64,000 nucleotides of DNA from the IMG/VR virus record IMGVR_UViG_3300031998_000083, positions 556 to 64,555 of that record; one strand, written 5' to 3'. The DNA is from a virus (lineage: Duplodnaviria; Caudoviricetes). The notes under the pieces are model-generated. The model had not been told where the DNA came from, searched no databases, and saw only the letters and a list, made by a program, of their open reading frames with translations. The position numbers and the translations under genes were made by a program. Every line of letters starts with the position of its first letter. The stretch's first letter is position 1. Shown in pieces: positions 13,434 to 48,953 of the stretch.

Positions 13434-13652
13434 TTACGGCTCCCCGAGATAATCCACGATTACCGCCACCTGAGCGGCAGGATAGTGCTTGTCGTTGACG
13501 TTGTAGTTGGGAAACTTCCTCAGTTCGCCCATCAGATCCCTGCACCGGCGCACGTCTCGACGGAACAGCTCCACCGCCGACTCGTCCCTCGGCGTGTCCG
13601 GCCAGTATTTACGGGCCAGCTCCAGTTTGGTATAACTCCTGATCTCAAACAT
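13434..13652 (-). CDS. DUF4248-family protein
   Basis: 'FEIRSYTKLELARKYWP...Y...QVAVIVDYLGEP' family pattern. Confidence 0.8.
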   Translation of the reverse strand: MFEIRSYTKLELARKYWPDTPRDESAVELFRRDVRRCRDLMGELRKFPNYNVNDKHYPAAQVAVIVDYLGEP

Positions 13653-13791
13653 AACTTATTAGATTTTCGTTTGTGGCACTATTGCCAGGGCAAAGGTACG
13701 ACGTAAAAAGGCCGTCAGCGCGTGTTTTTGCCCGTTGTTTACGGTTATATCTGACTGATTGCCGAAAATTCTTACTACCTTTGCATCCGCT

Positions 13792-14016
13792 ATGCGAAAA
13801 ATACAATTCACCATTCGACAATACGGACGCACGGAGCTGGCACAGCTCTACTGTCCCGACATCCAGCCGGAATCGGCCTGGGTGAAGCTGAAGCTTTGGA
13901 TCAGCCAGCATCCAGGCCTCAACGGCCACCTTCACGCCCTCGGCTACGACGGCCGTTCACGCTCCTTCACACCCGCACAGGTCAGGGCTATCACCGACGC
14001 CCTGGGCGAGCCGTAA
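13792..14016 (+). CDS. DUF4248-family protein (second, divergent copy)
   Basis: 'FTIRQYGRTELAQLYCP...RSFTPAQVRAITDALGEP'; TACCTTTG at 13776-13783. Confidence 0.8.
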   Translation: MRKIQFTIRQYGRTELAQLYCPDIQPESAWVKLKLWISQHPGLNGHLHALGYDGRSRSFTPAQVRAITDALGEP

Positions 14017-14031
14017 AGAAATGGCTGTTAT

Positions 14032-14391
14032 TTAGTAAATACGGAAGATGGAAGAAATCAGAAGAGCAAGTAAGAACAAAGCAGCAAAGCCAATAATCAG
14101 CTTTAGAAAGATGAAAAAAGCTTTGGCCGGTTTGTTTATGCAATAACACACTAAACGTATGATAATAGAAGGAAGCATAAAAACCAGCATCATGGGCCAT
14201 CCCAATATACATGCTGCCAACAACATCGACACAACAAATAGAAAATTAAAGCCTGACGAAACAGTTACTGGTATTACGATGGATAAATAAATAATGACTG
14301 ATCCTATACAATAAAACCATTTATCGTGTTCTTTCAGATAGCCAATGTAACTATCTGCAAATTTATCCAACTTATCAATAACACTACCCAT
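14032..14391 (-). CDS. AT-rich small membrane protein (moron)
   Basis: 119 aa, 2-3 hydrophobic helices, low GC, own TATCTTTG (14418-14411). Confidence 0.7.
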   Translation of the reverse strand: MGSVIDKLDKFADSYIGYLKEHDKWFYCIGSVIIYLSIVIPVTVSSGFNFLFVVSMLLAACILGWPMMLVFMLPSIIIRLVCYCINKPAKAFFIFLKLIIGFAALFLLALLISSIFRIY

Positions 14392-14469
14392 AAAGCACTA
14401 ATATACGCGACAAAGATAGAGAATATTTTAATGAAAAACAAGAAAAACAAGAAATATTTCGCAAAAAGC

Positions 14470-14500
14470 TTGCAAGTTTCAGATAATTGTTGTATATTTG
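14470..14500 (+). promoter_or_regulatory. Promoter of the antirepressor operon
   Basis: TTG (14470-72), 20-nt gap, TATATTTG (14493-14500). Confidence 0.8.
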
Positions 14501-14622
14501 CACCGTCCAAAATTTATTTAGCAACAAAGCAGAGGTTAGAGATCTGCTGTGCGTGACGCATAGCTTTTTTCATATATACCTCCTTTGAATGAATGTACAA
14601 GTTTATTGTATAACCATTCCGT

Positions 14623-14696
14623 GCAGTAGTGTGTGGTAGCGGCGCAACGCCCACAAAGGCTCTTAGCTTTGTTGCAGCCTTGGACAACACTGATGC
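14623..14696 (+). ncRNA. C4/CI-like antisense RNA
   Basis: Closing stem GCAGTAGTGT/ACACTGATGC; internal GCTTTGTTGC and TTGGACAA are complementary to sites both upstream and downstream. Confidence 0.65.
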
Positions 14697-14718
14697 GCGG
14701 ATATTTTCATTTGTCCGA

Positions 14719-14955
14719 ATGAAAGCAACAAAACAAACATGCAGCGTCCAGCTCTCGCTTTTCCCCTGTCAGGGATCCAGCGTAAATGACGCAAAGAACG
14801 GCAGCACTCCCGTTGCCAAGTTGTCCACCTATTTAAAGACCCGCGAGGCCCTATGGAGGCTTATTGCATCTTATCCCAAGGGAATGCCCGTTGAAGATGC
14901 GATCCGTCGCGCCCGTGTCGACTTCACCAAGCCCAGAAAGGAGGCAGCCGTATGA
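14719..14955 (+). CDS. First ORF of the antirepressor operon (icd/kil position), 78 aa
   Basis: ATG flanked by the two antisense target boxes; stop overlaps the next ATG. Confidence 0.6.
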   Translation: MKATKQTCSVQLSLFPCQGSSVNDAKNGSTPVAKLSTYLKTREALWRLIASYPKGMPVEDAIRRARVDFTKPRKEAAV

Positions 14956-15179
14956 CTATCCAATCACTCAGAGAGGGTCTTGCGCTGATGGGCGCAACCT
15001 TCAGCGTCACGGAAAACTCTTTCTATTTTGAATTAAAAGGCGTAACCGTACTGATCGATCGGAGCCTTTCAGAGAAAGAAATGGAGGCAGCATTCTTCTT
15101 GCTGAAGCTCAACGTCCCAACATGGTTTGGTCTGGCCAAAGAGGCTATTAAGAAAGAGAAAGGAGGCGACAATGGCTAA
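14952..15179 (+). CDS. Small hypothetical protein
   Basis: AAAGGAGG at 14937-14944; ATGA coupling with the previous ORF. Confidence 0.7.
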   Translation: MTIQSLREGLALMGATFSVTENSFYFELKGVTVLIDRSLSEKEMEAAFFLLKLNVPTWFGLAKEAIKKEKGGDNG

Positions 15180-15300
15180 GATCGTACCGCTCTACTCCCC
15201 CAGGGAGACATATATGCGCCATATCGCGCGCGCGAACAATAGTATATTATATAAGGTAATCAATGAAATCCAAAATCAGAATAACAATGAACAACAATAA
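15172..15300 (+). CDS. 42-aa ORF (MAKIVPLYSP...), not in the ORF track
   Basis: AAAGGAGG at 15159-15166, ATG 15172, TAA 15298-15300, overlaps the antirepressor start. Confidence 0.5.
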   Translation: MAKIVPLYSPRETYMRHIARANNSILYKVINEIQNQNNNEQQ

Positions 15301-16168
15301 TATTAACCAGATCACAGACCAGCAGACGATGACATCCATGGACATCGCAGAGATCACTGGCAAGAACCATTTCGACGTGCTGAAGGCTATCCGGAAGATG
15401 GAGCCTGCATGGGAGAAAGTCACAGCAAGCAAATTTACTTGCCGTAAGAGAATCAATGAGTTAGCAAACGGATTTAAGAAAGAAATCCCTTACTTTGTAC
15501 TCACCAAGACCGAGTGCCTTTTCGTCGCCACCAAGTTCAATGATGAGGCCCGTGCCAAGCTTGTACTCCGCTGGGAGCAGTTAGAGAAGGAGCGTATCGC
15601 CCAACCTCAGCCTTCAACGTTCAATGTTCAACGTTCAATGTCGGGCGAAAGCACCCTCCCCGTCGATCCCCGTAACATGTCGCGCCTGCAGATCCTCCAG
15701 CTGGCCCTTGCCGCTGAGGAGGAGAACCAGCGCCTTCAGCAGCATGTGAGCGACCTCGAGGCCGACAACTACGGCATGATGATCGACCTCGGCCAGAAGG
15801 ATCAGCAGATCTACGAGCTTCAGGAGCGCACACGCTACCTCGATGCCATCATGGCCGACAGATCGACGGTCACCGCCACCCAGATAGCTCAGGACTACGG
15901 TATGGGAGCGCCCTCGTTCAATAAGCTGCTGAACGGCCTCGGCATACAGCGCAAGGTGGGTGAGCAGTGGATCCTCTACTCCGAACACCTAAACAAGGGC
16001 TATGTGGCCACCCGTATGATACCCATCCACCATGCCGGCATGCCAGACACCTACAAGCCCCTCACGTCGTGGACACAGTCCGGTCGCAGATTCCTGTACA
16101 ACAAGCTTAAGGAGCATGGCGTACTTCCCCTGGTGGAGCGCACCCAGCCGACAGCCTCAGCACAGTAA
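15287..16168 (+). CDS. Phage antirepressor: Rha-type N-terminal domain + KilAC/ANT C-terminal domain
   Basis: 'TMTSMDIAEITGKNHFDVLKAIR...ARAKLVLRWEQLE' and 'TVTATQIAQDYGM...WILY...KGY...WTQSGRRFLY'; ORF is open from 15263. Confidence 0.88.
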   Translation: MNNNNINQITDQQTMTSMDIAEITGKNHFDVLKAIRKMEPAWEKVTASKFTCRKRINELANGFKKEIPYFVLTKTECLFVATKFNDEARAKLVLRWEQLEKERIAQPQPSTFNVQRSMSGESTLPVDPRNMSRLQILQLALAAEEENQRLQQHVSDLEADNYGMMIDLGQKDQQIYELQERTRYLDAIMADRSTVTATQIAQDYGMGAPSFNKLLNGLGIQRKVGEQWILYSEHLNKGYVATRMIPIHHAGMPDTYKPLTSWTQSGRRFLYNKLKEHGVLPLVERTQPTASAQ

Positions 16169-16190
16169 CGGTTCCCCTTCATCACAAAGA

Positions 16191-16220
16191 CAGGCGGCGA
16201 TCCTCACGGACCGTCGCCTG
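16191..16220. terminator. Hairpin between the convergent antirepressor and giant genes
   Basis: CAGGCGGCG...CGTCGCCTG stem. Confidence 0.7.
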
Positions 16221-16255
16221 TAACGTTTAATTTAAAAATATTATAGAAATGAAAA

Positions 16256-19200
16256 CTATTTCTTGCTCTCTGCCCTCATCAGGATCTCCAGCGCTTCCTT
16301 GCGCCACTGACGGATATTCTTCATGATGGCCTCGTTGGCCTTCTCGTCACCGTCGGTACTGAACTGACGCTTTCCTGGAGCCAGCAAGTCAGGCTCGTTA
16401 CCCTTCTTACGGTTTCCCTTCCGGCCTGAAGGTGTGTCGTACTTACCGTTGCGGATCCAGTCGAGGCGCTTCTTGACCTCAGCCTTGGTTCTGTCGCCGG
16501 CATCGCTCTCACGGTAATCCTTCAGCTTGGCATCGAGCATCTCCTCCTCGCGGATATCCTCATACTCCATCCGCTCCTGGTACATGTGCTGATACCAGTT
16601 CTTATCGAGATCCTGCTTGGCGGTCAGGTCGGCCACTGGAGCCACACCCATACGCTGGGCTATGATCTTCGCATACTTACGCTTCTCCTCGGCACTCTCC
16701 GAACGAGCCAGGTTGTGCATCAGCTCCTTGTCGGTCAGGCGCTCCATACGCTGCTCAACAGCCTTGTCAAACTGCTGCTGGATCTTATCCATCTTCTCCT
16801 GGCGCTTGTCGTCGCCACGGAACCAGCCCATGACAGGCGCATCCTTCCAGTGCTTGTAGTTGGCATAGCGACGGGCCATCTCCTCATAGGGCAGCTTCTT
16901 GGCATCCTCCACGTTCATACCCAGCTCGTCGATATACTTGTTGCGCCAGGAACTTGTCGGGGCGTTCATCAGTCGCATGATGAAGAGGGCTATCTCCTTC
17001 GAGTTGGCCAGATCGTCGTTGCCTACATCCTTGGTGAACGGCATCCAGTCTGGATTACCGTAGTCCATACAGGCATTCCACATGTCGGTGAAGGTCTGCG
17101 GGTTCACGCCGACGGCACTCTGCATACAGATATTGAACACATCCTGAGCTGCTGCATACTTGTCGTAGCCCATCTTCTTGATCATGCCCTGTATGTCGGC
17201 CATCAGCGGCAGCGGGTTCACCTCGTAGTCGCCTCCCTGCTTCAGGGCAGCATCGATACCGGCACCCCACCCCTCTTTACGGATGGCCTTGCGCGTCTCT
17301 TCCGAGGCAGCCGTGCGGCTGATAAACTCACTGAACAGGTTGCCTGCGGCCATTCCCTCCGTAGGTCCGGCGATCATAGCCCTGACGGCAGCATCGGTCA
17401 GCATCTCCTTCTTCGTCTCGTCGTCGTCGCCCATCAGAAGGTATGGCAGGCTGGCACCGATGTTCCAGGCTGTGGTCACACCGAACATCATGTTCAGCAG
17501 ACGGGCCACGTCGTGACGGGCAGCGCGCGCATACTCCTTCTCGGCAGCCTTGCGGGCCTCAGCCTCATCAAGGTCGAACTGATCCTGCAGCTGGCGTGTC
17601 ATGAAGTTGATGCTGTCCTCTTTATAACCTTTCTGCGCCCTGTGGCTGAGGTTACGGGCAGCGTCCACCCACTGCCGGGTATAGGCCATCGAAGAGTTAC
17701 GGAACACTGACAGCATATTGGCAGCCACCGTGCGGTCTTTCTGGATCGCACTGACAAAGGCGCCCTCGCTCGATTGCTGCGTCAGGTTGTAGCCGATCTC
17801 GGCATCCTGAAGGGCGCGCTTACGGGCCACCTCGTCGGAGGCGCCGATATCCTTGTACTTCTTATAGCGAGCCTCGTAGATCGATCTGGCGCCGACGGCA
17901 CAGGTCACGCCGTCGACCAGCGCGTTGGGACTCATACCCAGACGGGTGGCCATCTGCACGACGTTGGTCTTCCACATCTTCCAGTCCGTAGGATCGTCCA
18001 TCAGACGGGTGTCGCCCACCTGGCGGCTCTTCCAGCGTTTCTTGAACACGGGCATATTCTCCATCGCCCACTTCCACGATCCGTAGGGGTTCATGCTGTT
18101 CTTCACGAAGTCGCCCAGATCGACGTCATGCAGGAAAGCTGGCGCCGACAGGATCTGCTTGAAGGCGGTATAGACGCGGAAGTTGATCTTCGCGGCCGTC
18201 ACACCCTTGGCGATATTCGAGATCGCCTTATCCACACTGCCAGGCTTGGCTTTGGGGTCGTATTTACCGGCAGCCATGCTGGCGGTGTTCTTGAATGCTT
18301 CCCATAGGGCATCTCCAGAGCCGTAGATGGTGTTCATGTTCTTCACCTTATTGCGGAAGGTGGTATAGCTCAACAGGGTGCCTATATCACGGTTCCACTC
18401 AGCCGTGGCAGCCCAGCGCTCCATGTCCTCCACATGCTCAATAATTAGACTGAGGGCATCGGTATGCAGGATATCCAGCGGAAGAGCGTTCTTTGTACGC
18501 TTGATGATATTGCCGGTAATAGTTGACGGTTTCGATTCTCTGTCTGGAACATTTACATCCTCTTCCTGATATCTTGCATCATTGATGATCCTAATAGGGA
18601 AGTAGTTGTCGATGGCAGCCATGGGCGCACCGAACATCCGTTCGTGTACCTTATTATAGGCTGTGCGCTTGCTCGGCAGATATTCATCCTGCAGCCAGTC
18701 GCCCAGCTCTTTCAGTCTGGGATCGAGGAAGTCCTTGATAGCCTCCACATTCTCCTCGTCGATTCCCATGTTACGGAGCTTCATACGTCCGTCGGCCATC
18801 TTGTCGGCCATGTAGATATAAAGCAGGTTGCCCTGGTTGAGCGTGAACGTCTTCGGGTTCTCACCGTCAAGCACCTCCACCTCCATCGTCGGGAGCCTGC
18901 GCTCCAGCTCGTAGAGGTCGCTCCAGCGCTTCACCTTGTCGCCGAACACCTCACGGGCCTTGGCATCCAGCTCTTCCTTGGCCTTCTGCTCGTTGACATA
19001 CGATCGGTCTACGGAGTCTATCCAGTTACGCATGAAGTAGTCGTACAGGTGGCCCTCGCCCTTCGCGTTACGGCCTCCGAACTGTCGGAGCATCTGCTCA
19101 AAGGTGGCCAGCGGCTGCAGGAAGAAGTTGGCAGGCTTACCCTTCTGCTTCTCCCTCATGGCGTCGGCAGGCTTGCCGGCAAGGTCGAAGTTGGCGATCT

Positions 19201-22200
19201 GCTGGATATGCTTCACACGCTCCTTGTCGCGCTCCACAAACTCCTTGGCACCCTGCATGCTCTCGCCGATGTTACCCTCCAGGCGACCGATGATGTCGCC
19301 GAACAGTCCGATACGTTCGATCTTGTTCTCCATCATCGCCTGATCGATGGCATCCAACAGCTCCTGCTGGGCCTTGTATGAGCGTCCGCTGCCCTTATAG
19401 TTCTCTACGGCAGCCTTATATACACGGTCAAGATCGGCATACTCGTCGCGGCTGGCCTCGATGTTCTCCTGGTACTGGAGCGCGATAGACAGACCCTCGT
19501 AATCCTGCTCCCACATCGGGGCCTCCTCGTCGTTACGGGCCATCTTCTCGACCACCTCGCTCATACGCTCACGGATCTTCTCGGCATCCATCCTGCCCTC
19601 GCGCGCCTGGCGGAAGGCCTGGATCATGCGCTGACCCTTCAGCTCCAGCCTGCCCTGCTTCTCCACTCCCTGGGCTGTCTTGCTCAGTTCCTTAACAGAA
19701 GAGAGTTTCGTCACGCGCTGGTCGAGGTTACGCAGCTGGTTGTCAACGAGGATATTCATGATGCTGTCAATTTCACGCTTGATATCTTTGGCACCGGTGG
19801 CGTTCTTCACCGCCGACAGCATACGCTCCATCTCTCCGCGTCGCAGGTTGTCGCCGAAGCCCATCTTCATAAACTCCTGGGCGAAGTCGGTCACAGCCTT
19901 CACAGTGGCCTTGTCGTAGGCCTTCTGCTGACTCATGGCGTGACGGATCTGCTGCAGCTCTGCAGCCACGCGGCGCATCTTGGCCGAAGGGCTGTCAGGA
20001 TAGCGACGCTCGTTCTCACGGGCTGCCTCCAGCACATCCTTATCGTCGCGCTTCTGGCGGTAGTCATCCAGCTTCGGGGCCGTCTGCCAGAGCGACTTCT
20101 CACGGTTCCACTGCACCAGACGCTTCGCATAGTCGAGGGCTGCCTCGCCCTGCTGCATCCTAGGCTTCTCGCTGGGGCCTGTAGCCGTCTCGCCGATGGC
20201 ATTGCGCTCACGCCACTTCTTCATATCGGCATCCCACTTGTTCCAGTACTGGCGCTCCTCCGCTGTCATCTCCGGCTCAGAACTGCCCGTGCGTTGGAAT
20301 TTTGGGGCCTCATCTGAAGATTTTCGCTTATTTTCTTGGTCGTTTGGAATATTTTTCGTATCTTTGCCCTCAGAAAAGGAGATGTTGTCATCGGCAGCGA
20401 CAGCCCTGCTGCCAAAAGTGTCAATAGGGGTTCCAGCGGTATTGGCAGATGACAACTTCTCCTTTTTCGTTTTACTGTTGTCAAATGCTGTCAGTACCCA
20501 CTTCTTCCCATTGTCCTCCTGGGCCAGAACTACACGATATCCATCCTTTGTAATCTCAATATTATTTCCGTTCTTACCTACGCTGCCATTATTGACAACA
20601 TCGTCCAGTACGGCAGACAGCTCATCGATATCCTTGAAGTCGTGCAATGTCTCGATGTGCTTTCTGATGATATGGGACAGGCCTTTTCCCCTGTAAGGGT
20701 TATGAGACTCGCCCCATACAAGATCGATATCGCCCACCTCGTCACGGTGGAACACACCCAACAAATCACCACCCTTCTTTTTAACTAAGAAGTCAACAGC
20801 TTCTTTAGGCTTACCCTTGAACTGATCGTAGACCTCGCCGAAGTCACCGGTACCGACAGGCTTAATATCCTTGATGTTCATCGAGGTACCGTCATCCATG
20901 ATAATCACCTGATCCTCGCGGGGAACATCCTCGGTCTCTGAGGCGAGGCTGTTTCTGCGCTCCTCCTCAGACATATTCAGGCGCTTATCGACATTACGTG
21001 CCTCTACCTCACCGGCCAGACGGTGATACAGATCCATGGCATCACTCTTGGCAGGAGCCTTGGTCTCTCTCAGACGATCTATCTGCTGGTTTATATTATC
21101 GTACTTACCTGCCAGATTAACGGCTTGATTCTGCAAATAGAAGGTGTATTCACCAACAGTCTTACCTACCAGGTCGGCATAGTCTTTCTTCTCTTCAGGA
21201 CTTGAACTCAGTATCTTGTTAATGGCATCAAGCTCAGTCTTAATGTTAGCCTTTTCGGCTTCCTTCTTGGCTATAATAGCATTGATACCCGTCTCTGAGG
21301 TGCTGGTATAAAGATTACCACCCTGTGCAAATCCCTCAATATCCTGAATGGCGTGCTGGATCTCATGCAACAGGGTGCCATAGACATTCTCGTTATTGAG
21401 CTGATTGTCGCCGAAGCGCTTCAACTCGTTATAACCTATCTTTATACCGTCCTCTCCGAAGCTGCCGGCTGTACCTCCCTGCAGGGAAGTGAAAGTTACC
21501 TTCAGATCCTTCAGTTCAGGATAGTATTTGAACAGTTCTTTATCCTCGCCCATCAGCTCACCAAGGGACATTGACACGCCTTGCTCGTCATACTCCTTTA
21601 CCTTATTGCCTGCTTCAAGATACTGCTTCCAGATCTTTTCCTTTTGTTTGCGCATCTCCCGATACTTAGCTTTCTGCTCTTCGGAGTAGCGGCTGTCAAT
21701 ACGGCCAGGGATGGCGTTTGTCAAGCTCTGGTACTTCTGCAGAAGATTATCTTCCTCCTTACCGAGTCGAGACACCTCTTGATCGTGTTCCAGGCGTGCT
21801 TGTTTGTATTTGCTGACGATATCAACGTCGGCATCGGGGATCTCGTAGCGCCACTGACCGTCGGCACCGCGCTCCCAGCCTGTAGCATACTTGATTGCCT
21901 TGGGATCCACTCCGGCTTTCTCGGAATCCTCTGCCAGGGCCAGGTTTCGGCTCCTCTCGTCGCCACCTTCGGCCTTGTCGGCAGCCTGAGTGCCCTCCTT
22001 GCCTACCATCTGGAACATGATATCATCACGTCCGCCGACGGCATCCATGGCGACCTGCTTACGGTTGGCATCCTTCTGATCTTCGGTACCGGTATTGTCA
22101 TAGGTGCGCACGTCAAGACCGGAATTCTTCAGGGCCTCAACGATCTCAGGAGAAGTGGTCTCAGGCACTACGGCCACGGCAAACTCGTTCAGATATACAG

Positions 22201-25200
22201 GACGCTCAAATTTGGTCTCAAAGTAACCCGTCGGGAACTTCTTCTGCACCGCGTTGACAAACTGCTCGATGGTCTGACGGTCCTCAGCAGACAGATCGTA
22301 ATTGTATTCCCTCTTCAAGTAACTGCTGATGTTCTTATAATGGTCAAGGGCGTCGCCCAGGATATTATCACCATTATACCAGTCGCCATTACCAAGCTTG
22401 TCAGCAATGGCGCGAAGCTTCTGGCCCCACTCCTCATGGAAAGCCTCATGCTCTTCCTTAGTGGTGTTCAGATTGGCTTTGTTCTTCCTGATACCTTCAA
22501 GTGTTTTCTCCTTGCTGGCCACCTTTGCTATCCAGTTGCCGATGCTGCTCCAGTTAGTGGCGCCATTGAGGCCTTCCTTCTTCATCAGCTTGGAAGCATT
22601 CTCCAGGGTGTTGCGTACCCACTTTTGCCGGCCCTGATAGTCGGTACCGTTGAAGAGCCATTCCTCCACACCGTAACTGTCGGCCTTATCTTGCAGCCAT
22701 TTGTCGAAGTCCTGCTGGAGATTCTGCTCCTTCACGGCCTTAGCAGCCTTGCTTATAGTCTCTTCGACATTCGGTTTGCCTTCACTGACAGCCGATCTGC
22801 GCACAGCATACTCAAAGTTATTGAGGTTATGCAGAAGCTCTCCGTACTTCTCCAGCTCTTCAAGACGAGCGCGTTGCAGGTTTGTGAACGGGGTATTCTT
22901 GTCTTCCTTGATCCTTTCCTTAAGCTTTGCTATACGCTCCTCGGCAGGCGTCACAGGTTCGCCGATGCTCTCCTTATAAGCACGGTACATCTCGGCGATC
23001 TCCTTGATCTGCTCTTCAGGTAGATTGCGTACCTCCAGATTACCTTTGTCGGTAAGCTCATCGATACGCTTTGCAACATCCTCACCATAAGGATTCTCGT
23101 TGAGTACCAGCTCTGGGTTCAGACCCTTCTCCTTCATATACCAGTAGGCAAGGCGCTCCTGTCCTGCCTCCTTATCAAGCCAGGTGTCAAAGGCCATCCT
23201 CATATAGCTGGCTACCTCTCCGGCATCCTCATTCAGGCTTCTGATATCTTTCCAGAACTTAGACATTCCCTTATCGCTCATACGCTTCTGCACCTGCGGA
23301 TAGGTAGGAGTCCAGGCATCTGCGGTAAAGGTGCCGGCATTGTTGCCTGTGCGGGAGTCTATCAGACTTGATTTCGGGATCAGGGAGATATCGCCGTAGT
23401 CTGTGTGCATGTGGTTGTTGGTGTCAACGACTGCAAGGCTCGGGTTAGCCAGTCCTCCCTGCTTCAACACCTTTCGGAGCTTATCCTCACTCAGGTTATG
23501 AACACCCATCAGGGTACGCTCGATCTCTGCCTGAGAGCGAAGCTTACCGCTGGCAGCCTGGCGCATACGCTCACGAGGATCCACACCATTGAGCATATCG
23601 GCCAGGATGCGGTCTGCAATCTGGTTGGCATTGCGGTACTTCCAGCCCATCATCTTAGCCACACCCTCCCAGAAGCGGTTGAGGATATTCTTCAGGCGCT
23701 GCATGGCGGTTACAGCCTCAGCCTTGCCAAAGACACCACCGTTCTCGGCTGCCACTTCGTTGGCGATCTCACGCAGGCGCTCGGCACCTCGCTTACCGGA
23801 GAACTGGGTGATGATCTCCTCGATGAAGTCATCCTCCCTGCCCTCTTTAGAGAGTTCAGGATAGTCACGCTTCACGCGGTCAATGATCGGCTGCACTAGC
23901 TTGTCGGTGAGCATCACACGCTTGATATCGTCCCACTCCTCGGGACTCGTCTGACGCTTCATCTCTGCCCACAGGTGGCCGTACTCATGCACCGGCGTCT
24001 CGCTCATGGCAATACGCGGATCCAGGTAGATCTTTCCCTTATAGGTATATCCGTAGGCATGGCCGTCCTTCGTCTTGAACAACATCGGGCGTCCATGCAT
24101 ATCAAACACCCTCGCCTGCATGGAGGCGGCTTCTTTCTGATCCAGCATGTCCTGCAGGCCTTCATTCTCGATGCGGTCAAGAAGATCCCAGCGTAATGAC
24201 AGCATGCCGTAGCCGTACTTCTCAGACATTGCGTTCAAGTTGTCGGCCATTACCTGGCCAAGACCTTTGACACCGTGTTTGGCAATATATTCCTGCCTGA
24301 TCTTCTCTTCTAACTCATCCACGTTCAGGCCTTCTTCATCAAGCATCTGCTCGTTGATACGCTTATAGGCCGCTACGACCTCTTCAGGAGTCAGCTTTGC
24401 CACTTTATCCTGAATATCCAGAGACTCCCGGATATTGGGATTCTTGACAATCCTTTCCTCGATCGGCCTCATATCAACGGTCTGTGCGACGCTGCCTTCA
24501 TCCACCTTCTGCTGGCGGATCGGATTGCCGTTGATGTCCTCGGTGACGGATCCGGCAGGCTTTGCGCCGATCTTCACACCCCGTTTCTCCAGCTCTGCAC
24601 GCTGGGCAGGCGTAACGACGTTGTAAGGCACCTCGATATCGGTCCCCTCCAGCTGTTTGGCGATCATGTCGGCCACCTCGCTGTCAGGCACGATGCGGTT
24701 CACCTTGCTATAGCGCGAAAGTGTCACCTGGCGCTGTCGGTCGGCAGGCAGCTGCCCGTTCACGACTCCACTGTGCCAGTCCACATTACCTACGGCGTCC
24801 TTGGCTCCTTCGGCCTTATAGCCGCTGGTCAGTTCACTCTCAGGGATCTCCACCTCTACAACAACCAGCTCGGGACGCTTATAGGCGCTGGTGAACTGAT
24901 CGTTAAGCCCGGATGTAGAGGTATGGAAATAGGGATTGTAGGCAGCAGGCACATTGCCCTGGCCCTTCTGTCCCTTGTTAAGCACGAACTTTCCGTTCTT
25001 GATAAGATCTGGACGCTCCTCGGCCTTCTCCCATACACCGATCTCAGTAGGCTCGCGCATCTCACCGTCCACCTTCGCGGACATCGGAGGATAGAGCTTA
25101 CCGTCGATCAGCTGCATAGCCCGGTAGCGCTTCACGGTCTTACCGTTGTTCAGCTCTTCAAGCTCGGCCTCATCTGTAACCTTCTGCGGCTTGATCTCCG

Positions 25201-28200
25201 CTTCGGGATCTTCAACCGCCATACGGCTGTTATAGTCATCAAGGATCCTCTGACCTTCCTTCCAGTCGGTGCTTACCTCGATGCCAGCCTGACGGAGGTG
25301 ATCCACCACGGCGTCACGCAGGGCCTTTTCCTGCTGCTCGGGAGTAACAGGCTGCCAGTCCTTGGGACGTCGAACCATGCTCTCACGGGTAAAGAAGTCG
25401 GTATTTCGGCCCTTGTTGTCCTTGAATCCGAAACGCTTGTAAAAGTCCATCAGGCGCTTGATGGAGGTGGCGCCGAAGCTGGTGTCAGGTGTCAGATCCA
25501 GCGTCCAGCCTTTCTCGTCGGCAAGCCTTGCAAGGTCTTCCATGAAGCGGGTGCCGTTGCCCTGTCCCTGACTGTCAACAATGAAATGTGTCAGCGTGAG
25601 GTGGTCGCCCAGACGCGACAGGGTGACGTTCTTAAGGCCGTACTCCTTCAGGAGGTCGGGATCATCGATGGAGATATCCCGCTCGTCAAGCTTCTGCAGG
25701 GCTGAGTCGAAGGCAGGATTGCCTTGCTCCACCCTATGCTCATCCATCTTTGCAAGGCGCTCGTCATACTTCCTGACGGCCTCATCCATCTTCTGGTAGC
25801 GGATACCGCTGTCGATCCAGTCCTGTTCCTCGCGGCGCATGGCCTCCTCGGCGGTCTTCATACGGTCGCGGATGATCATGTTGGAAATGTCTGTCGGCTT
25901 CTCGGCACCAGTAAGGACGTTGTAAATGATGTTGCGGAGATCCTGATCCGAATACTGTTCCTTCATTCCTTCCGGCAGGGACTCATGGACGGACTCGGCA
26001 AACTGCTTCAGGCTCTTTCCCTTTCCATTGGGAGCCAGCCACGGGTTGAAGCCCTTGGTGTCGCCACCGAAGCCCCGGCTGCCGAAGCCTGTCTCATCCT
26101 TCAGGCCTACGATCGTGTTGCCTCCCTGGTCATAGCTTGTGTATGCCAGGAATCCCTCTCCTGGCTTTGGCACGTCGCCAAGTGCATCGGCTATGTATTC
26201 CTCTACAGTACGCGGCTGCATAGACTCATCATCAAGGGCTATGGCAGCCTCCTCATTGCCTTTGTACAGCTTACGGAGCCGCTCGACCTTCTCCTTCCGC
26301 GTGCCATAGCCGATGGTACGCTCGGCAGCGGACGCCCTGTCGCGCTGTTCCAGGCTGATCAGATCCTCGAAATGATCTTTCCTGTATTCGTCGTAAAGTT
26401 CATTGAATGCCTTTCTGTCGCCGGACTCGTAGAGATTCCACAGCTTTTCCCTTTCCTCGTCAGTCAACACGCTGACGACCTTGTCGGCGCTCTTCTTGTT
26501 CCTGAAGACTCCCAGAAGCTTCTCTTCAGTCGTGAGATTCTTCTGCCAGACGTTGTTTTCGATGGCCTCACCGGTCTTGATGACGTTATACGACTCCCGT
26601 CTGGCCTCTCCGATGGGATTGCCGTCGGCGTCGTAGTCGCGGCGGGTGACAACTGCCTGCCCGTCATGGCTGATATGCTCAATGGTCATATCAGACCGTA
26701 TGCCGCGGCTGTCGGTGAAGCTGAAGGTGCGCCCGACGTTGTCCTGGACGGCCTTCTGGTATTTCTTCGCGGTCTTCTGGTCTACGGCTGGTAGTCCGTC
26801 AGCAGACCCAGTGCCACCCTCTCCCGTCTCGAGAGTTTGTCCGGATCCGGCTCTTCCGGCTGCTGGCTGTCCTCCAGCTGCTCCAACTTCTCCATCAGCT
26901 CCGGTCTCTGCTGCAGGAGTCTGCCTAGACGCTCCCGCGACTCCCTCAGCTGGACGTTCTTCGGATGATCCTTGTACTTCTCCGTCTGCGGGGGGTACCA
27001 TACCACTTCCTCCTCCGTGCACTGGTTCCCCGGATACACCTGGTCGAAGATGTCGCACATCTTGCTGAAGTATGCGTCGTCCCAACTCGTCCACCCTTCG
27101 TTCAGTAGCGGGGGTAACGTCTGGTATTTGTCGTGCAACATCACGTAGTCCTCGTCCGAGAGAGGCAGCTTGATCTGCTGTAAATCTTCCTTCGTTAATT
27201 CCATACTCAAAAATATCTAATAGTTCGTTTAACTTTGCATCATCAAGGGAGTAATCCCACTTCTCAGCCTCATCAGCAGAGACGCGGCCTCCTTCAGGAC
27301 GTTCTGCGGCCTTGTTGCCGCTGTTGTCGAAGCCGATGATCTCCACGTCAGGATGGAGCTTCCGCAGGTCGGCGATCTTTCCCTGATTCTCCAGGAAGGC
27401 CTCGTTCACGAAATACTCCAGAGCGAGGAACCGTCCTGTCCTGAGTCCTCTTTCAACGGTATTGTTGAACGAGGTGTAGGCATCATTGTAGACGGCTACC
27501 ACCTGAATGTCTGTCATTCCGGCCTTCTTCGCCTGCTTTATGGCTGCGTCAAGGCTCTTGACATTATTAAAGGCAGAGTCGTAGACCATTCCGCGTCCGC
27601 TAAAGTCCATGTTCCTGGTGGCGGTACTCTTGCCTGCGCCTCCTGCTCCCGTCAGCAGCGTGATGCTCGTCTTTCCGCTTGCGACGGCGTCTTTGAGCAT
27701 CTTATCGTAAATAACGGCCGTCAGCCGCTTTCCCTGTGCTTTGAAATCCGGTACGTTCTTCCCGTTATAACCTATCGGAGTAAGAGCGTCTCTGAGTTTA
27801 TCGGGATCCAGAAGATTACCATGCAACTTGATGTAAGTATCAACGATCTCGTCCATGTGTTCGTCTACCCACTTGGCCTGACTCTCTGGATCTGTTGCAA
27901 AGTTACGAATTTCTTTTGGATTTACCAAATTTATCCACGACTTTTTTGCATTATATACCTCAGAAAGTGCATTTTCGGGTACTCCGGCGGCTTTTGCTTC
28001 CTGATAAGCGACCTCTAACTGGTCAAGATCCTTGGCTCTGATGATGTTGGCGGTATGTGTAGTGAAGGCCTCAGCCAGCTTTGCCTCAGCCTCCTGGCCA
28101 CGTCTGGCAAGATCCTGCCAGTACTCAGCCTTCTGACGGGCCTCGGCCAGCTTATCCTCATGGGCTTCGAGGTCGGCCATGTCCGTAATGGATGAGGTGT

Positions 28201-31200
28201 CTGTCTTCTGAAGCTTATCATACTCCCTTGCAGCACTCTCGGCTATCTGGGCGATCATCTTACCGGCCTTCTCCTCGCCGTATTTCTCTGTCAGCTCGGC
28301 CAGGGTGTCCTCGGGCGTAGCCTTCTCGTACACCTTCTTACCCTTCTCGTCAACGGGAATACGGGAAGGAGCGGCGCTTCCGGATTCCAGCCGCCCATCA
28401 TCTTCGGCTGATGCGCTTACTTCACCGGCGGCATTTCCGCTCTGTATTTCTTTACCCTTTCCTTCCTGCTGGCCCTCAGGCTCTTGGGCTGCCTCCAAAG
28501 GAACCTCGGGCGTTTCCATTGATCCTTCGGGTGTAATCTCCTCCGGACGGTTGGCAGCATCGATCTCGTTGCTTTTCGCCTTGCGGTACTCGTCGATGTC
28601 AAATGGCTGCGGCTCTCCCAGGATTTCCGCAGCATTGCCGTTTTCGTCAGGAACCACTTCCGTCTTTGCCCACGTCATGTTTCCGTTCTCGTCGGATATG
28701 GTGCTTACCATGTAGGTCTTGCCGTCTGCCCCGACGAATGTCTCTCCGACCTCCTGTGGAACCTCAGGCGTGCCTGGTGCCAGCTCGATGGAGTCGTCGG
28801 CAACCTTCATCAGCTGTCCACGGAGTCCGTCCATACTGTCGTTGGCCTCGATCAGTCTGCGAGGATCAGTCACACCGGTCACCACTACATCATTGGGATT
28901 GACAACGTCGATCTCACCGGTATTGGCATCGCGGACGATCACGGCCCCGCTGCCGTCGGTAGATACCAGCTTGCCCTCGGGAGTGATCTGGAAGTGGCCT
29001 GCGCTGACATACACATCCCTACCCCTCGAATTGCCTGTGATCAGCATACCACTGTCAGGATGGGTGTTTCTGCGGATCTCGGCATTGGCGGCATCCACCT
29101 GCTCATCGACGGTCTTGATGGCCTGATCCATCATACCCTGCATACGGGCTGCGGCATTGAAGTACTCCTTGGCTGCCTCCAGCATCGGTCCGTCCACGTC
29201 GCGGCGCATGGCCAGCTCTGCCATCTTCTCGTCAGGATAGTCGGCAGCAGCCATCACCTCTTCGGCAAACTCCTGGCCGTACTGTGCAAGGGCCTCTTCT
29301 GCTACCTGAGCATCTACAAGGGCGAAGTGGCGCTCCTCGGGAGTGATCTTCTTTCCTTCCTCAAACCTGCGTCTGGGATTATACTCATCCTCAGGGAAGG
29401 CATTGCGGGAGATTACACCATATACATTATTAAACTGGTCGGGATCGAGGCTGGTGTCATTGGGGTTAAGGGCCTTCTGCACCATATCTGCGGCATCCAA
29501 GGGGGATATGCCGTTGGTCTCGGCGATCTCGAGGACAATAGCTTTGTGCTGCTCCTTGCTGGTGGCGTTCCACATGTTGACGGCATCATTGAGGCTGAAC
29601 TCGCTCTGACACTCCTCGCGCCACTGCTCGGCATCGCTGAAGGTATCAAACTTCAGGTCGCGCACACAGTTACCGTCCTTGTCGCGGGTCTTCACAATCA
29701 CACTGCCATCGGCATTATGTACGATATCGGCACCTGTCTCGAGTCCGGCACGGTAGACACCTCCCAGGACTCCTGCCACCTTCTGCTTCACGACGGCTGG
29801 GATCTCGGGATTGCTCATGAAAGCGTTATAGTTGTCGGCCAGCTGACGGCGCATCTGCTCACCCTCGGGAGTAAGCTTTTTCTTACCGTTCACCTCGCTG
29901 ATAGCTGCATCAGGGTGCATGCTGCTAAGAGTCTCCAGCAGGCTACGACCTTCGGCTGTGTCGCGCACATAAGCCTCCTCTTCCTTGGTGAACTTCATGC
30001 CAGAAGGTTTGGCTGACATGGCCTTACCGACGGCTTTACGCACACCGTTCTTATAGATATCGGCACCTGTCTCGAGGGTCTTGGTCAGCAGATGACCACC
30101 AGAGGCCTTCATCACTCCCAGCTTCTCCATGGCCTCCAGGGATCCCTCGAAGGGATTGGTGAAGCCTTCCTCGCCCTGTACCATCTTGGCCAGTTCCTCG
30201 GTGGCATACATCGTCTCGGCCTCAGCAGCGAAACCGGCTGCCTTGGCACCTACACGGGAGATACCGGTCAACGGCTGGGAGAGAGCCTGGGACATGGCAC
30301 CCGTAACACCGAAGGCTGCACCGGTGGCCAGACCCTCGGCGGTGGATCCAGCCAGTCGCATGGGGTCAAACTCGCTGTCGCGCATCTGACGGGCTGCCTC
30401 TGACGTGGCGTTATAGCCTCCCATGGTGAGGGAGCTGCTGATAACATGCTGCATCAGGTAGTTCTTCATCCTCGCGCCTACACTGTTCTCGAGGGCTGCA
30501 CCTACGATACTACGGGCAGCAGTCTCACTGAGGCCCTTTCCCATGAGATTCTGGATCTGGCGCTCGGCCACCTTCTTAGCCACCTGTCCTGACACCTTGC
30601 CATACAGGCCGAAGAAGGGAGCATCGGCAGCAAAGGACACACCCATCTGGGTAAGCTTCGCTCCTGTGCCTGGGTTATAGTTGGGGTTGAGACCTTCCTC
30701 GGTCATGGCCTCAGCCTGGTTCTTGATCTGACGCTGGCCCTTAGACTCGGTGATGGTGTTATAGAGCATACCGATGATGCTGTTACCCAGTCCGTTCATG
30801 ATATACTCTACGGACGATTTGGGAAGTTCGCGCTTCACCAACGTATCGGTAAGCCTGGTGGCAAGGTCCTGCTGGATCTTGGGCTTGATGATGTTCTCGA
30901 TGTATTCGGTACGGTCGATACCCATCTTATCAGCCTCCTTACCTACCTCCTCGGCAAAGGCACTGTCCTTATACAGACCTTCCATCTGCTGCTGGAGATA
31001 GTTGAGGATCTTCTCAGGATCTTTAGCCTCGTTGGCCTCGCGGACATTACCAAGGATGCCAAAGCCTCCGGCCTGTCCAATAGATCTTACGGCACTGGTA
31101 TTTTCGCGGCCCTCGTTGAAGACCTCGCTGGCTTTCTTGTCAAACTCGGCAATGGCCTTGTCTACGGCTGGAGCGACAACGGAGCTGGTAATACGGTTGA

Positions 31201-33713: not shown

Positions 33714-35165
33714 CTATTCTGCCACCCTTAATTTTACTTCTTTTGCCTTTGCGAACTCCGCTGCTGCCATGATCGCACGCTCCTCATTGTCGAGCTTCAG
33801 GTATTTGCGGAGCATCTTCTCCGAGCTGTGGCCAGTGATGACCATGATCGATGATAGCGACACCTTATTCTTATAGGCATTGGTGGCGAACGTCCGTCGG
33901 GCTGTGTGCGTCTTGATACACTCATAGAAGCTTTTCTTCGTTGGCACCTCCATCGTACCGTGCAACTCCTTGATGCCAGCGTTCTCACGCCAGCCCAGCA
34001 GACGGCCTATCACCTTGATACGCTCGTTCAGGTCCTGGTCGTAGATCTTCGGCAGCTTGCCACCGTATTTCTGGAGTATCGCCCTCACGCGGATGTCAAG
34101 CGGTATGTATATCCACTTCTGCGTCTTGGCCTGCTGGAGGTAAATGTATTCGTTGCCGTCGGAGAGGGTACGGATCATATCCTCGTTGATGCGTTTGTAG
34201 TCCGATACGCGCTGGCCTGTCAGGCAGCCGACGGTGAAGATATCCTTCGCCTCGTTCAGCAGCTGGGGTGTGCGCCGTGTCAGCTGATCCTTCATCGCTG
34301 CGCGTTCCTCGTCGCTGGGTGCCAGCTTCATCAGGCGCTTGATGGTTTTCTCGTCCTCAAAGTCCGTCTGGTACATCTCCTGCAGCCTATCCTCGGTCAG
34401 ATAGACATTCTCCACCTCCTGAGAGTCTGCTGAGAAGCGGGCGCTCTCGAAGTCGTCGCGCGTCGTCAGCTTCATGTCCTTGGCGGCATAGAGAAAGATC
34501 TTCAAGTTCTTCACATGCTTGCCGATGGTGTTGGGCGAATAGGGCTGCTTCTCGCCTTTCTTATTCTTCTTCTCCAAGAAGAACCGTCTCCAGTCGTCGT
34601 AGAAGTCCATTGTGATATCGTCGAAGTCAACGATCTTGTGGCGTTTCTTCTGGTAGGCCTCCAGCTGTGCCAGCGTACCTTTATAGGTCTTGATGGTGCC
34701 AGGTGTGATGGTGCGGGTACTCTTCTGCTTCAGCCGCTCCCCACTCTCGCACTCGTCGATATACGTTCTGATCCAGTCCATCAGCTTTACGCGCTTCTCT
34801 TCCTCAGCCCTCACGATGATTTCTTCCTGCTGACGCTCCACCTCTTTTAATATATCCTCACGGAGTATCTCGTCGATGGTCTTCTTTACCACCTGCATAT
34901 CCGTGATGCCGGCAGTGATCATGGTGTCAAGCGAGACTTTAACCGTCCAAAGCTTGTTTGCCAGCGAATCCCTGAGTACGATGGCGCTGCCACCTTTCAG
35001 GGCCTGCTCGGCTTTCTTAAGTACGTTATCGATGAAGTCCCAGTCCGCTGCATTGAGTGTCGCACCGAGCGCGACTGTCTTATTGAGTTTCGGCCTTTTA
35101 TATAGTCGGGCATACAAGTTGACGGTCCCATCATCCTTGCTCCCCCTTGCGAAGATCTGTGTCAT
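33714..35165 (-). CDS. int: Tyrosine integrase
   Basis: SAM-like domain; catalytic motifs GQRVSD (R), HTARRTFAT (HxxR), GHSS and Y in LRKYLK. Confidence 0.95.
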   Translation of the reverse strand: MTQIFARGSKDDGTVNLYARLYKRPKLNKTVALGATLNAADWDFIDNVLKKAEQALKGGSAIVLRDSLANKLWTVKVSLDTMITAGITDMQVVKKTIDEILREDILKEVERQQEEIIVRAEEEKRVKLMDWIRTYIDECESGERLKQKSTRTITPGTIKTYKGTLAQLEAYQKKRHKIVDFDDITMDFYDDWRRFFLEKKNKKGEKQPYSPNTIGKHVKNLKIFLYAAKDMKLTTRDDFESARFSADSQEVENVYLTEDRLQEMYQTDFEDEKTIKRLMKLAPSDEERAAMKDQLTRRTPQLLNEAKDIFTVGCLTGQRVSDYKRINEDMIRTLSDGNEYIYLQQAKTQKWIYIPLDIRVRAILQKYGGKLPKIYDQDLNERIKVIGRLLGWRENAGIKELHGTMEVPTKKSFYECIKTHTARRTFATNAYKNKVSLSSIMVITGHSSEKMLRKYLKLDNEERAIMAAAEFAKAKEVKLRVAE

Positions 35166-43287: not shown

Positions 43288-43808
43288 AATCCTATCACTT
43301 CTTTAATGTAACTGTCAATCTTCGCCTCGTAGTCGCGGAGCTTGTGGCTCATCTCGCGGTAGATCTGAAGGTCGTAGCCCTTGCGCTGGCTGAACTTCTT
43401 ACGTTCATGCCAGGTGTTGCGCCACTCCTCAACGAGCAGGAAGAAGGCGTAGGCTGCCGGATCCTTAACAGGACGGCCTGGGTGACTGTCTATAAACTCG
43501 CGGTCGGCCTTGATCTTCTTGTCGAGCGCACTCTCCAGCGCCAACGACGCCACCAGGTCGTCATGGTTGCGCCCACCGCTGTAGTACTTGTGCATGGCCT
43601 TGCGCACCTCCCACATCTGAAAGACGAAGCGCTGCGCTTTGGTCAGCGATTCCACGGCCTCAACGTCGGCCTTCAGCGTTGTCAGGGCCATACCTGGCTT
43701 GGCGCGCATGGCATTCAGCTCGATGTAGGCCAGCCGGCGGTCGCTGGTGGAGTAACACGGGGCCAGCTTCCCAGGCTCCCAGATATGGAACATTACCTTG
43801 AATGGCAT
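43284..43808 (-). CDS. Hypothetical protein
   Basis: Coupled ORF with typical codon usage. Confidence 0.6.
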   Translation of the reverse strand: MPFKVMFHIWEPGKLAPCYSTSDRRLAYIELNAMRAKPGMALTTLKADVEAVESLTKAQRFVFQMWEVRKAMHKYYSGGRNHDDLVASLALESALDKKIKADREFIDSHPGRPVKDPAAYAFFLLVEEWRNTWHERKKFSQRKGYDLQIYREMSHKLRDYEAKIDSYIKEVIGL

Positions 43809-47808: not shown

Positions 47809-48678
47809 CTATTTCATGTTTGGTTTCCAATTCTTGTCTGCGTTGTAGGCATCCATCCAGCTTACTACCGTTGTCTGCTGAGGCTGCATGGCCTCGTCGG
47901 CTGCCTGCGCTGCCTGCTGGGAGATCTTCCTCTTCCTGAGGTTGGCTCTCTCGAGGTATGCCTGGAAGTTCTTCGGCTCGAAGATGAACTGGAAGCGGGC
48001 GATGAATCCCGTCTTGTTCTCCCCCAGCGAGAACGGCTCCGTCAGGATCTGCTCAAACACCAGGTCGATGCTCTGCATGCCGAAGCGCCTGATACACTCC
48101 ATCACCATCATCCTCGTCGGCATCGTCAGGCGGATGCACTCGGGCAGCTTTCCGGCGAACGTCTTGTTATATCTCTTTTTCACTTCTAAGGCCACGTCTT
48201 CGCTCTCTCCCTCCTTCTTGTAAGAACTGTAAGGGCTTACAAGAATATTATCTTCCTTCTTCCTTCTTCCTTCTATTGTAGATATGTGTGTCGTGCCATC
48301 AGTAGTGCCAAGAGTAATGCCATCAGTAGTGCCAAGAGTAATGCCATCAGTCGAACCGAATAAGCTTTCCTGTGCGTCGTAACTATCATAGTCGCAGACC
48401 GTTACCACACTAAATCTGTTGTTCCCCCTAACGATTATCTCGCCGTAAGAAATAAGCCTTCTAAGCACTCTGTCTATCGTCCGGAGGCTCATGCCCGTCA
48501 GTTCCGACATCTCCGGACGGGTGATCGGGCATGACCCCCGACGGATGATCTGACCCTCGTAGCGCCCTTCGGTGACGTAGGCGCGCTCCTTCAGGAAGTG
48601 ATAGAGGTGTACCATCGTTGAATCCTTATACCATGGACGCTCCGACAGGTTGCGCTGCTGTTTGTACCATCCGCTCAT
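47809..48678 (-). CDS. Replication initiator (lambda O/DnaD-like)
   Basis: wHTH N-terminus (RGSCPITRPEMSELTG, NNRFSVVTVCDYD), internal iterons, C-terminal 'FQFIFEPKNF'; start MSGWYK overlaps the upstream stop. Confidence 0.8.
   Translation of the reverse strand: MSGWYKQQRNLSERPWYKDSTMVHLYHFLKERAYVTEGRYEGQIIRRGSCPITRPEMSELTGMSLRTIDRVLRRLISYGEIIVRGNNRFSVVTVCDYDSYDAQESLFGSTDGITLGTTDGITLGTTDGTTHISTIEGRRKKEDNILVSPYSSYKKEGESEDVALEVKKRYNKTFAGKLPECIRLTMPTRMMVMECIRRFGMQSIDLVFEQILTEPFSLGENKTGFIARFQFIFEPKNFQAYLERANLRKRKISQQAAQAADEAMQPQQTTVVSWMDAYNADKNWKPNMK
48241..48351. repeat. Probable origin: 24-bp iterons x2.4 plus adjacent CTTC-rich tract
   Basis: GCCATCAGTAGTGCCAAGAGTAAT at 48295 and 48319, partial at 48343, inside the rep gene. 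Confidence 0.7.
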
Positions 48679-48953
48679 GCTGCCTGTGCGCCTGCTGAGG
48701 GTTTCACTCTCACCTGGATGAACTTCTCGCCGTCGGTGTGCTTGTACATCGGGCAGATCCACTTCGTGCTGGCCACCATCACCTGATAGGGGAAGTGGGC
48801 GTTGCCGGTGTTCGGCTGCACGGTACACTGTGCCAGGATGGGGTTGCAGCCGTACCTGTGAAGGTTCGAGTGCAGACAGTCCATACAGCACACCACGTCG
48901 GTGTTCTTCTTCTCCTCCTTGTTGTTGACTCTCTTACAGTTAGTCCTTGTCAT
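48675..48953 (-). CDS. Cys-rich small protein
   Basis: CxxC...C motifs; strong AAAGGAGG SD. Confidence 0.7.
   Translation of the reverse strand: MTRTNCKRVNNKEEKKNTDVVCCMDCLHSNLHRYGCNPILAQCTVQPNTGNAHFPYQVMVASTKWICPMYKHTDGEKFIQVRVKPSAGAQAA

Follow-up and report, generated by a model that had tools for sequence, protein, structure and literature searches.

Does the untranslated stretch between a phage promoter and the antirepressor operon behind it give rise to an antisense RNA that keeps the operon silent, and, if so, is this RNA a mere analogue of C4, the immunity RNA known from phages P1 and P7, or a relative of it? The question is raised by positions 14470 to 16168 of a 64-kb stretch (the window, to which all coordinates refer unless another sequence is named) of IMGVR_UViG_3300031998_000083, a 64.5-kb phage contig of IMG/VR. 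Here, an RNA of the Rfam family c4-2 lies between two target sites complementary to its seeds, the second of which surrounds the start codon of a small open reading frame (ORF1) that leads into an antirepressor gene. As judged by sequence, fold, family relationship and covariation, it is highly probable that this RNA, a relative of P1/P7 c4, silences the ORF1-antirepressor operon of a temperate Bacteroidota phage. About 20 loci encoding homologues of ORF1 were fetched as a comparison set.

Fold of the RNA and complementarity to its target sites

The RNA, located on the plus strand at 14617-14704, is predicted to form four helices, namely a closing stem (14618-25/14695-702), an inner stem (14627-32/14688-93), hairpin 1 (14633-54) and hairpin 2 (14656-81), with a fold energy of -36.9 kcal/mol (z -3.1). 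The seed b' (GCTTTGTTGC, 14666-75) is exposed in the loop of hairpin 2 and the seed a' (TTGGACAA, 14680-87) lies mostly in the junction, the seed bases being largely unpaired in the ensemble. In a preliminary description of this DNA, a stem-closed RNA had been placed at 14623-14696; such an RNA is indeed predicted, but its extent had been drawn slightly too short. A U-rich tail (UAUUUUCAUUU, 14702-14712, plus strand) is read directly after the closing stem, and a U-run occupies the same position in all related loci as well as in the Rfam consensus. Thus, termination may form the 3' end of the RNA.

Target site 1 (14505-14530, plus strand), located at the start of the transcript, comprises a1 (GTCCAA, 14505-10) and b1 (GCAACAAAGC, 14521-30), and target site 2 (14711-14732, plus strand) comprises a2 (TTGTCCGA, 14711-18) and b2 (GCAACAAA, 14725-32) on either side of the ORF1 start codon (ATG, 14719-21). 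All of these motifs, together with the seeds and the promoter box, were found on direct reading at the positions previously assigned to them. The b1 element is a perfect 10-nucleotide (nt) complement of b', and a2 and b2 each form 8 bp with their own seed, including one G-U pair in a2. Among 5000 shuffles, four gave a perfect complement of 10 nt joining the RNA region to the leader, and 118 gave one of 8 nt joining it to the start region. The duplex predicted with site 1 has an energy of -24.3 kcal/mol, which was equalled by none of 1000 shuffled targets, and that with site 2 an energy of -18.3 kcal/mol, equalled by nine of 1000. When the 64 kb were searched for the pattern TTGTCC-N0-14-GCAACAAA (expected number 0.00), only site 2 and, on the opposite strand, the seeds were returned. 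The complementarity of seeds and targets is therefore far beyond chance, and the target-antisense-target arrangement recognised in the preliminary description is real, as is also evident from the covariation described below.

Relationship to the c4-2 family

A permissive scan against Rfam gave a single meaningful match, to c4-2 (RF02944), a member of clan CL00128, which also holds P1 C4. The match scores 30.8 bits and includes all 79 model positions, with E-values of 9e-4 (3 kb) and 4.6e-6 (record). The window RNA shares with c4-2 the four-helix fold with both stems, hairpin 1 carrying the motif GGUAGCGG..AACGCC, a hairpin 2 with a variable loop, and the U-tail, and it occupies the same place as c4-2 RNAs, before a small ORF and an antirepressor gene in phages with Bacteroidota-type promoters. 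It differs from them in a 2-nt insertion in hairpin 1, in a longer loop of hairpin 2 and in its a' word, which is UUGGACAA, whereas c4-2 members have UGACA, UAGGA or UAAGC.

The RNAs found at the same position before an ORF1 homologue in loci L009, L020, L011 and L012 score 51.9, 50.9, 50.7 and 47.4 bits against c4-2 (the four values are given as a set, not locus by locus), and thus exceed the gathering cut-off of the family. A covariance model, R1, was derived from the window and two close loci, and with it an RNA was detected immediately before the ORF1 homologue in 13 loci. The model recovers the RNAs of the four loci named above, plus those of L041, L042, L044 and L046, with E-values from 1e-9 to 1e-5, and it also matches c4-2 RNAs of unrelated IMG/VR phages (E 1e-8 to 1e-5), to which Rfam assigns 48-71 bits. 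In an alignment of 12 distinct relatives, which was fitted to the model and so favours the structure, 96% of cells are paired, as against 29-46% in controls with slid partners, and double (compensatory) changes occur in 20 of the 27 pairs. The frequent G-U pairs fit the plus strand only. Because the RNAs of its relatives pass the cut-off and R1 finds c4-2 members, the window RNA is, on the predicted fold and these model matches, a diverged member of the c4-2 family and a distant relative of P1/P7 c4.

This assignment alters the earlier view of the locus, which had correctly been taken as C4-type but regarded only as analogous to P1/P7 C4; the full-length match to a family of the C4 clan makes it a relative. 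Its novelty had also been overstated, as c4-2 was catalogued by Weinberg et al. in 2017 (PMC5737381), the main text of which describes it only as probably a remote homologue of an RNA already known. In keeping with the accompanying statement that no characterised Bacteroidota example was known, no experimental study of a Bacteroidota c4-type RNA was found. The locus is thus a real but largely expected regulator, the design being that of P1 immI and IsrK. What is new is a subgroup below the Rfam cut-off, which annotation pipelines will miss, clean covariation of the seeds with both target sites across a series of loci, and a possible target in a replication gene.

Covariation of seeds with both targets

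Covariation of seeds and targets had been named as a check on the antisense assignment, and it is clearly seen. There are 14 different seeds among 15 related loci, each of which fits the leader and the start region of the locus that it comes from. Among the c4-2-type RNAs, eleven different b' seeds occur, each with a matching b1 in the leader and b2 at the start codon. The b' of the window, GCTTTGTTGC, faces GCAACAAAGC as b1, and the corresponding b' and b1 are GCAGTGTTTC and GAAACACTGC in L013, GCGTTGATC and GATCAACGC in L014, TGCTTAGACTA and TAGTCTAAGCA (present twice) in L012, CGCAGTAACA and TGTTACTGCG in L009, and GCATTTGGA and TCCAAATGC in L020. The a' word switches along with a1 and a2, being TTGGACAA, TGACA or TAAGCA.

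In the leader, cognate combinations have a longest perfect complement of 9.5 nt on average and non-cognate ones of 5.7 nt; in the start region, the averages are 10.3 and 6.0 nt, respectively. The mean duplex energies of cognate and non-cognate combinations are -32 and -21 kcal/mol for the leader, and -23 and -14 kcal/mol for the start region. The positions flanking the seeds fall outside the duplex, so that G-U pairs versus A-C mismatches at these positions carry no information on the strand of pairing. The first ~8 residues of ORF1, the codons of which hold b2, are hypervariable, and the remainder of the protein is conserved. Joint change of the seeds with both targets would be expected if selection acts on pairing, with seeds diversifying into specificity groups. 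The series also offers ready candidates for orthogonal RNA-target pairs in Bacteroides and an RNA-based reading of immunity groups among these phages.

Three copies of an 8-10 bp word that change together, in a locus situated between divergent genes, would also be expected if b1, b2 and the inverted b' were DNA operators for a phage protein of co-changing specificity, the RNA fold then being incidental. However, b' is found in every case in a hairpin loop, with compensatory changes in the stem, and the fold is that of a catalogued RNA family. Moreover, G-U pairs are tolerated in the pairing (in a2 of the window and in b1 of L006), site 2 lies on the start codon and first codons, where there is no promoter, and none of the loci examined has a gene for a DNA-binding protein that varies with the seeds. 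The operator explanation is accordingly considered very improbable.

Two further arrangements were observed among the relatives of the locus. In L007 (2267-2500), L016 (2286-2515), L019 (2264-2490) and L021 (1081-1310), the same promoter, ORF1 and antirepressor operon is associated with another RNA that replaces c4-2 and for which no Rfam match was obtained at E <= 0.1. This RNA has a single seed of 12-16 nt (e.g. CCATCTGTAAGC) complementary to the 5' end of the transcript and to a site over the ORF1 start codon. From locus to locus, the seed changes together with its sites (CTGTAAGC/GCTTACAG versus CTGTTAGC/GCTAACAG), and RNAalifold predicts a long intramolecular helix between the leader and the seed region. 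The complete 44.9-kb provirus G009 (IMGVR_UViG_3300045988_186183) encodes three c4-2 RNAs above the Rfam cut-off, at its positions 25402-25477, 28507-28584 and 43358-43435, each with its own promoter box and leader terminator. Their b' seeds differ (CGCGATATG, GCGAAAAGAA and GCAATAATA), and the second of the three RNAs has no obvious start-codon site.

Promoter and leader

A Bacteroidota-type promoter is read directly on the plus strand at 14470-14500, where TTG (14470-72) is separated by a 20-nt spacer from TATATTTG (14493-500). A box of the form TTG-N~20-TAnnTTTGCA is located 190-252 nt before the ORF1 start codon in all 14 related loci with enough upstream sequence. A separate promoter directly 5' of the RNA was considered and rejected, as inspection by eye revealed no consistent TAnnTTTG box across loci. 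Between site 1 and the RNA, a terminator scan identified a terminator-like element, T1, at 14546-14570 (plus strand), which consists of a hairpin of 8 bp with the loop TGA (14546-64) followed by U6. A hairpin and U-run of this type are kept in all 10 leaders compared; four of the eight pairs show compensatory changes, and many G-U pairs fit the plus strand only. The element is absent from some bona fide c4-2 loci (L040 type). A small AT-rich hairpin just 5' of the RNA (14595-14613, plus strand) is present in the minimum-energy fold, and a hairpin of other sequence was seen by eye in the matching place in L004, L006, L008 and L013.

When a1-b1 is masked, the predicted fold switches to a full terminator for four of the 10 leaders compared; the predicted terminator of the window itself is unchanged. 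Because the switch is predicted in so few leaders and not in the window, control of an attenuator by the RNA is a weak idea. The same folds bear on whether pairing is purely intramolecular. In that case leader a1-b1, the seeds and a2-b2 would be alternative partners within one transcript that decide termination or access to the start codon, with neither a diffusible RNA nor immunity. The location of all parts on one transcription unit, the four leaders that switch and the long helix between leader and seed region in the L007-type loci are consistent with such an arrangement. However, the predicted RNA of the window closes on itself and is unpaired with the leader, and its terminator does not respond to blocking of a1-b1. 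Four helices closed on themselves and followed by a U-tail are what a released RNA would show, and the fold is homologous to the trans-acting c4 of P1 (PMC8546580). The three cassettes with three seeds in G009 fit orthogonal diffusible regulators. Pairing within the transcript only is thus judged improbable, and it and the operator explanation are both weaker than silencing by a c4-2-type antisense RNA.

The leader terminator is not new, given its precedents in P1 and IsrK, and by analogy suggests that a short a1-b1 RNA may be made here too. In Salmonella Gifsy-1, transcripts stopped at a terminator constitute the short, trans-acting IsrK, and read-through gives a long RNA that contains a processed RNA complementary to IsrK, followed by orf45 and the coupled antirepressor gene anrP (PMC4825925). 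The short and long RNAs were tested by experiment in Salmonella, together with orf45 and AnrP, and short IsrK activates translation of orf45-anrP in trans (PMC4825925). The locus resembles IsrK-STnc1160-orf45-anrP in that upstream target sites are followed by a predicted intrinsic terminator, the leader so ended is complementary to a downstream RNA, which here would be processed, and a small ORF would be coupled to the antirepressor, whereas a leader RNA comparable to IsrK is only putative in the window.

The leader of the window might therefore act by activation, a short leader RNA with its 3' end at the terminator-like hairpin binding the read-through transcript or the c4-2 RNA and turning translation from ORF1 to the antirepressor on. 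The hairpin and U-run kept in every leader compared are in keeping with such a role, as is the score of 35 bits, below the cut-off of that family, which the P1 a1-b1 leader (L080:81-162; AF234172 48230-48311) reaches against isrK. Through this match, the leader of P1 is connected both with Salmonella IsrK and with the terminator in the leader of the window. The P1 leader also scores 51 bits against c4-a1b1. However, the models isrK (RF01394) and c4-a1b1 (RF03163) gave no match up to E 10 in 13500-16500, and c4-2 loci of the L040 type lack the leader terminator altogether. Activation would in any case complement silencing by the c4-2 RNA, as that RNA can repress while a leader RNA relieves. It is regarded as somewhat unlikely.

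The operon and the proposed mode of silencing

As described previously, the RNA is followed by three short ORFs and the antirepressor gene, all on the plus strand and overlapping one another. ORF1 (14719-14955), in the position of P1 icd, encodes a conserved protein of 78 amino acids (aa), for which 80 homologues from metagenomes gave a conserved alignment. No lead was obtained for it from Pfam, PHROG or Atlas, and its AlphaFold model is poor (predicted local distance difference test, 64), with no fold match by Foldseek against the Protein Data Bank. ORF2 (75 aa, 14952-15179) overlaps the stop of ORF1, and ORF3 (42 aa, 15172-15300) that of ORF2, with AAGGAGG preceding the ATG in each case, and ORF2 homologues follow ORF1 in L010, L014 and L017. 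The antirepressor gene (15263-16168), which overlaps ORF3, encodes an N-terminal Rha domain and a KilAC/ANT domain (PF09669, 5e-16; PF03374, 7e-23; phrog_63, 1e-45), and wherever the sequence of a related locus extends far enough, a homologue follows in the same orientation. Translation would be coupled from ORF1 through to the antirepressor, as indicated by the overlapping stops and starts.

Given this organisation, the promoter TTG-N20-TATATTTG would drive one transcript with, in order, site 1, the terminator-like hairpin, the spacer, the folded RNA, site 2 at the ORF1 start codon, ORF2, ORF3 and the antirepressor. The anatomy, the covariation and the P1 precedent indicate that the RNA would be freed by processing, by termination at its own U-tail, or by both. 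The loop seed b' and the junction seed a' would then pair with b2 and a2 and cover the start codon, so that translation of ORF1 and, via coupling, of the antirepressor would be blocked and the CI-type repressor of the phage would stay active. Translational repression by pairing at site 2 is the likeliest mechanism, and is held with good confidence. The same seeds would also bind site 1 in the 5' leader. If IsrK is taken as a guide, transcripts halted at the leader terminator would yield a short a1-b1 RNA that titrates or remodels the system and so sets a threshold; titration by this RNA, feedback on the leader terminator and IsrK-like activation may each be the role of site 1. As b' seeds differ and have matching targets, each phage would respond only to its own RNA. 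Since the phage also has an integrase gene and a gene for a CI/S24-type repressor, the antirepressor module is predicted to be a second layer of immunity beside that repressor, in agreement with the secondary immunity first proposed for the locus.

Several observations weigh against silencing by such an RNA. The outcome of the comparison with the Rfam C4 families, which had been suggested as a check, was divided: c4-2 was matched, but its 30.8 bits are below the gathering cut-off of 41 bits, no Rfam family reaches its gathering cut-off anywhere in the window, and the C4 model (RF01695) has no match at the locus, its sole match being elsewhere at 13.6 bits. An identical search with that model recovers P1 c4 at 68.8 bits. 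Pairing in the start region is weaker or bulged in L004, L006 and L008, and a terminator-like hairpin between promoter and RNA, if efficient, would limit synthesis of the RNA. The existence of the RNA, its ends and its action in trans are deduced from sequence, and because the RNA and both targets are on one transcript, intra- and intermolecular pairing are not separated by such data.

Comparison with phages P1 and P4

To our knowledge, c4-type RNAs have been studied in enterobacterial phages only. The c4 RNA of P1 is processed by RNase P, and Citron and Schuster are said to have found in 1990 that seed differences set the specificity between P1 and P7. In the annotation of P1 immI (AF234172), promoters, a1, b1, c4 (77 nt), a2, b2, icd and the overlapping ant1 follow one another in an order identical to that of the window, with two seeds complementary to an upstream site and to a site at the start of the first ORF, and a small ORF leading to the antirepressor by overlaps. 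P1, like the window, also has a hairpin and U-run between b1 and c4, and in both phages the system is a second immunity layer beside a main repressor. Unlike a2 and b2 of the window, which bracket the start codon, those of P1 precede the icd ATG (48470) by 41-47 and 11-18 nt, with b2 adjoining the icd ribosome-binding site. The promoter type and host phylum are also different, and ORF1 has no detectable likeness to P1 Icd or to any known protein. Hence, the whole immI design of upstream site, leader terminator, RNA, start-codon site, small ORF and antirepressor also occurs in Bacteroidota phages of gut or rumen origin, despite differences in translation initiation and promoters.

The CI RNA of phage P4 is a processed immunity RNA, the seqB of which pairs with seqA and seqC on its own operon, and it shuts off the replication operon. 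The window locus resembles it in having two complementary sites on its own operon, and the shut-off of replication resembles the action proposed below for 14570-14597. CI acts, however, by premature termination of transcription in cis, whereas the putative replication target of the window is a translation start 34 kb away on the other strand.

A spacer segment antisense to a distant replication-module gene

The spacer segment at 14570-14597 (plus strand), right after the leader terminator, is identical in 27 of 28 positions (E 5.6e-8) to the plus strand at 48950-48977, 34 kb from the spacer. The minus strand at the latter site has AAAGGAGG and the ATG (48953) of an ORF at 48675-48953, which overlaps the start of a DnaD-like/replication-O-like gene (47809-48678). 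As the spacer is identical to the plus strand there, the leader RNA is antisense to this translation start from -24 to +4, and the 5' untranslated region (UTR), Shine-Dalgarno site and start codon at 48950-48977 (minus strand) form a candidate trans target. In the provirus G003, a different sequence in the same slot matches (20/20, or 26/28 when extended; E 1.3e-5) the 5' UTR and start codon of a small gene, on the minus strand, that adjoins the DnaD-like gene of that provirus. The target proteins of the window and G003 are unrelated.

No such spacer match was detected in G002 (a provirus in the genome of an isolate, IMG taxon 2799112723), G004 or G005, or in four complete, more distant c4-2 phages (G006-G009), and a pattern search with the leader hairpin for further cases returned G003 only, apart from chance matches in coding DNA. 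Two independent cases in the same slot and the same module nevertheless argue for a function of the spacer, though the sample is small. It is tentatively proposed, on the sequence matches, that the spacer might act as a trans-acting antisense RNA on the Shine-Dalgarno site and start codon of the gene overlapping the start of the DnaD-like gene, one transcript thereby holding down both antirepressor and replication; we consider this possible, with the odds somewhat against it. If true, the logic of P1 c4 would be joined to that of P4 CI in one transcript, and a functional match would represent a new coupling of antirepressor control to replication control.

A 19-aa minus-strand ORF (14573-14514) opposite the leader was rejected as a gene, because L013 has lost the start codon, and L004 and L006 do not keep the frame. 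It follows the copied Shine-Dalgarno site and ATG, has a 22-aa counterpart in G003, and is probably a by-product of the antisense segment.

The phage and its host

The record includes portal and terminase genes, an integrase gene (33714-35165, minus strand) and a CI/S24-type repressor gene (51159-52121), and related records carry a provirus classification. HU-HIG and DUF4248, which are families typical of Bacteroidota, flank one related locus. Isolated phages related by portal are three temperate Bacteroides phages only, and c4-2 was not found in these nearest relatives. The INPHARED database contained no record with ORF1 or c4-2-like DNA. Given the promoter boxes, the portal relatives and the neighbouring Bacteroidota-type genes, the phage is, on its sequence features, temperate with a Bacteroidota host, as the preliminary description had supposed.

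A Firmicutes host was considered because of strong Shine-Dalgarno motifs and the presence of L006 in a Butyrivibrio metagenome-assembled genome, and was rejected on the same three lines of evidence. L006 (JAFSQI010000022.1, 1951 bp) is nearly identical in leader, RNA and ORF1 and has a promoter box of the Bacteroidota type, and its contig was binned into a Butyrivibrio genome from goat reticulum, which is probably a binning error. Bacteroidota in general make little use of Shine-Dalgarno sites. In the whole window, AAGGAGG-N3-9-ATG was seen 11 times against 1.2 expected (e.g. at 14938-54 and 15160-74, and at 48951-65 and 9719-33 on the minus strand), a strong Shine-Dalgarno signal found mainly at internal coupled gene starts.

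Beyond the operon, an ORF of 5216 aa (16256-31906, minus strand) converges on the antirepressor gene. A protein of >3862 aa with an InPase domain is encoded in the equivalent position in L025 (6518-7950), indicating that this neighbourhood is conserved.

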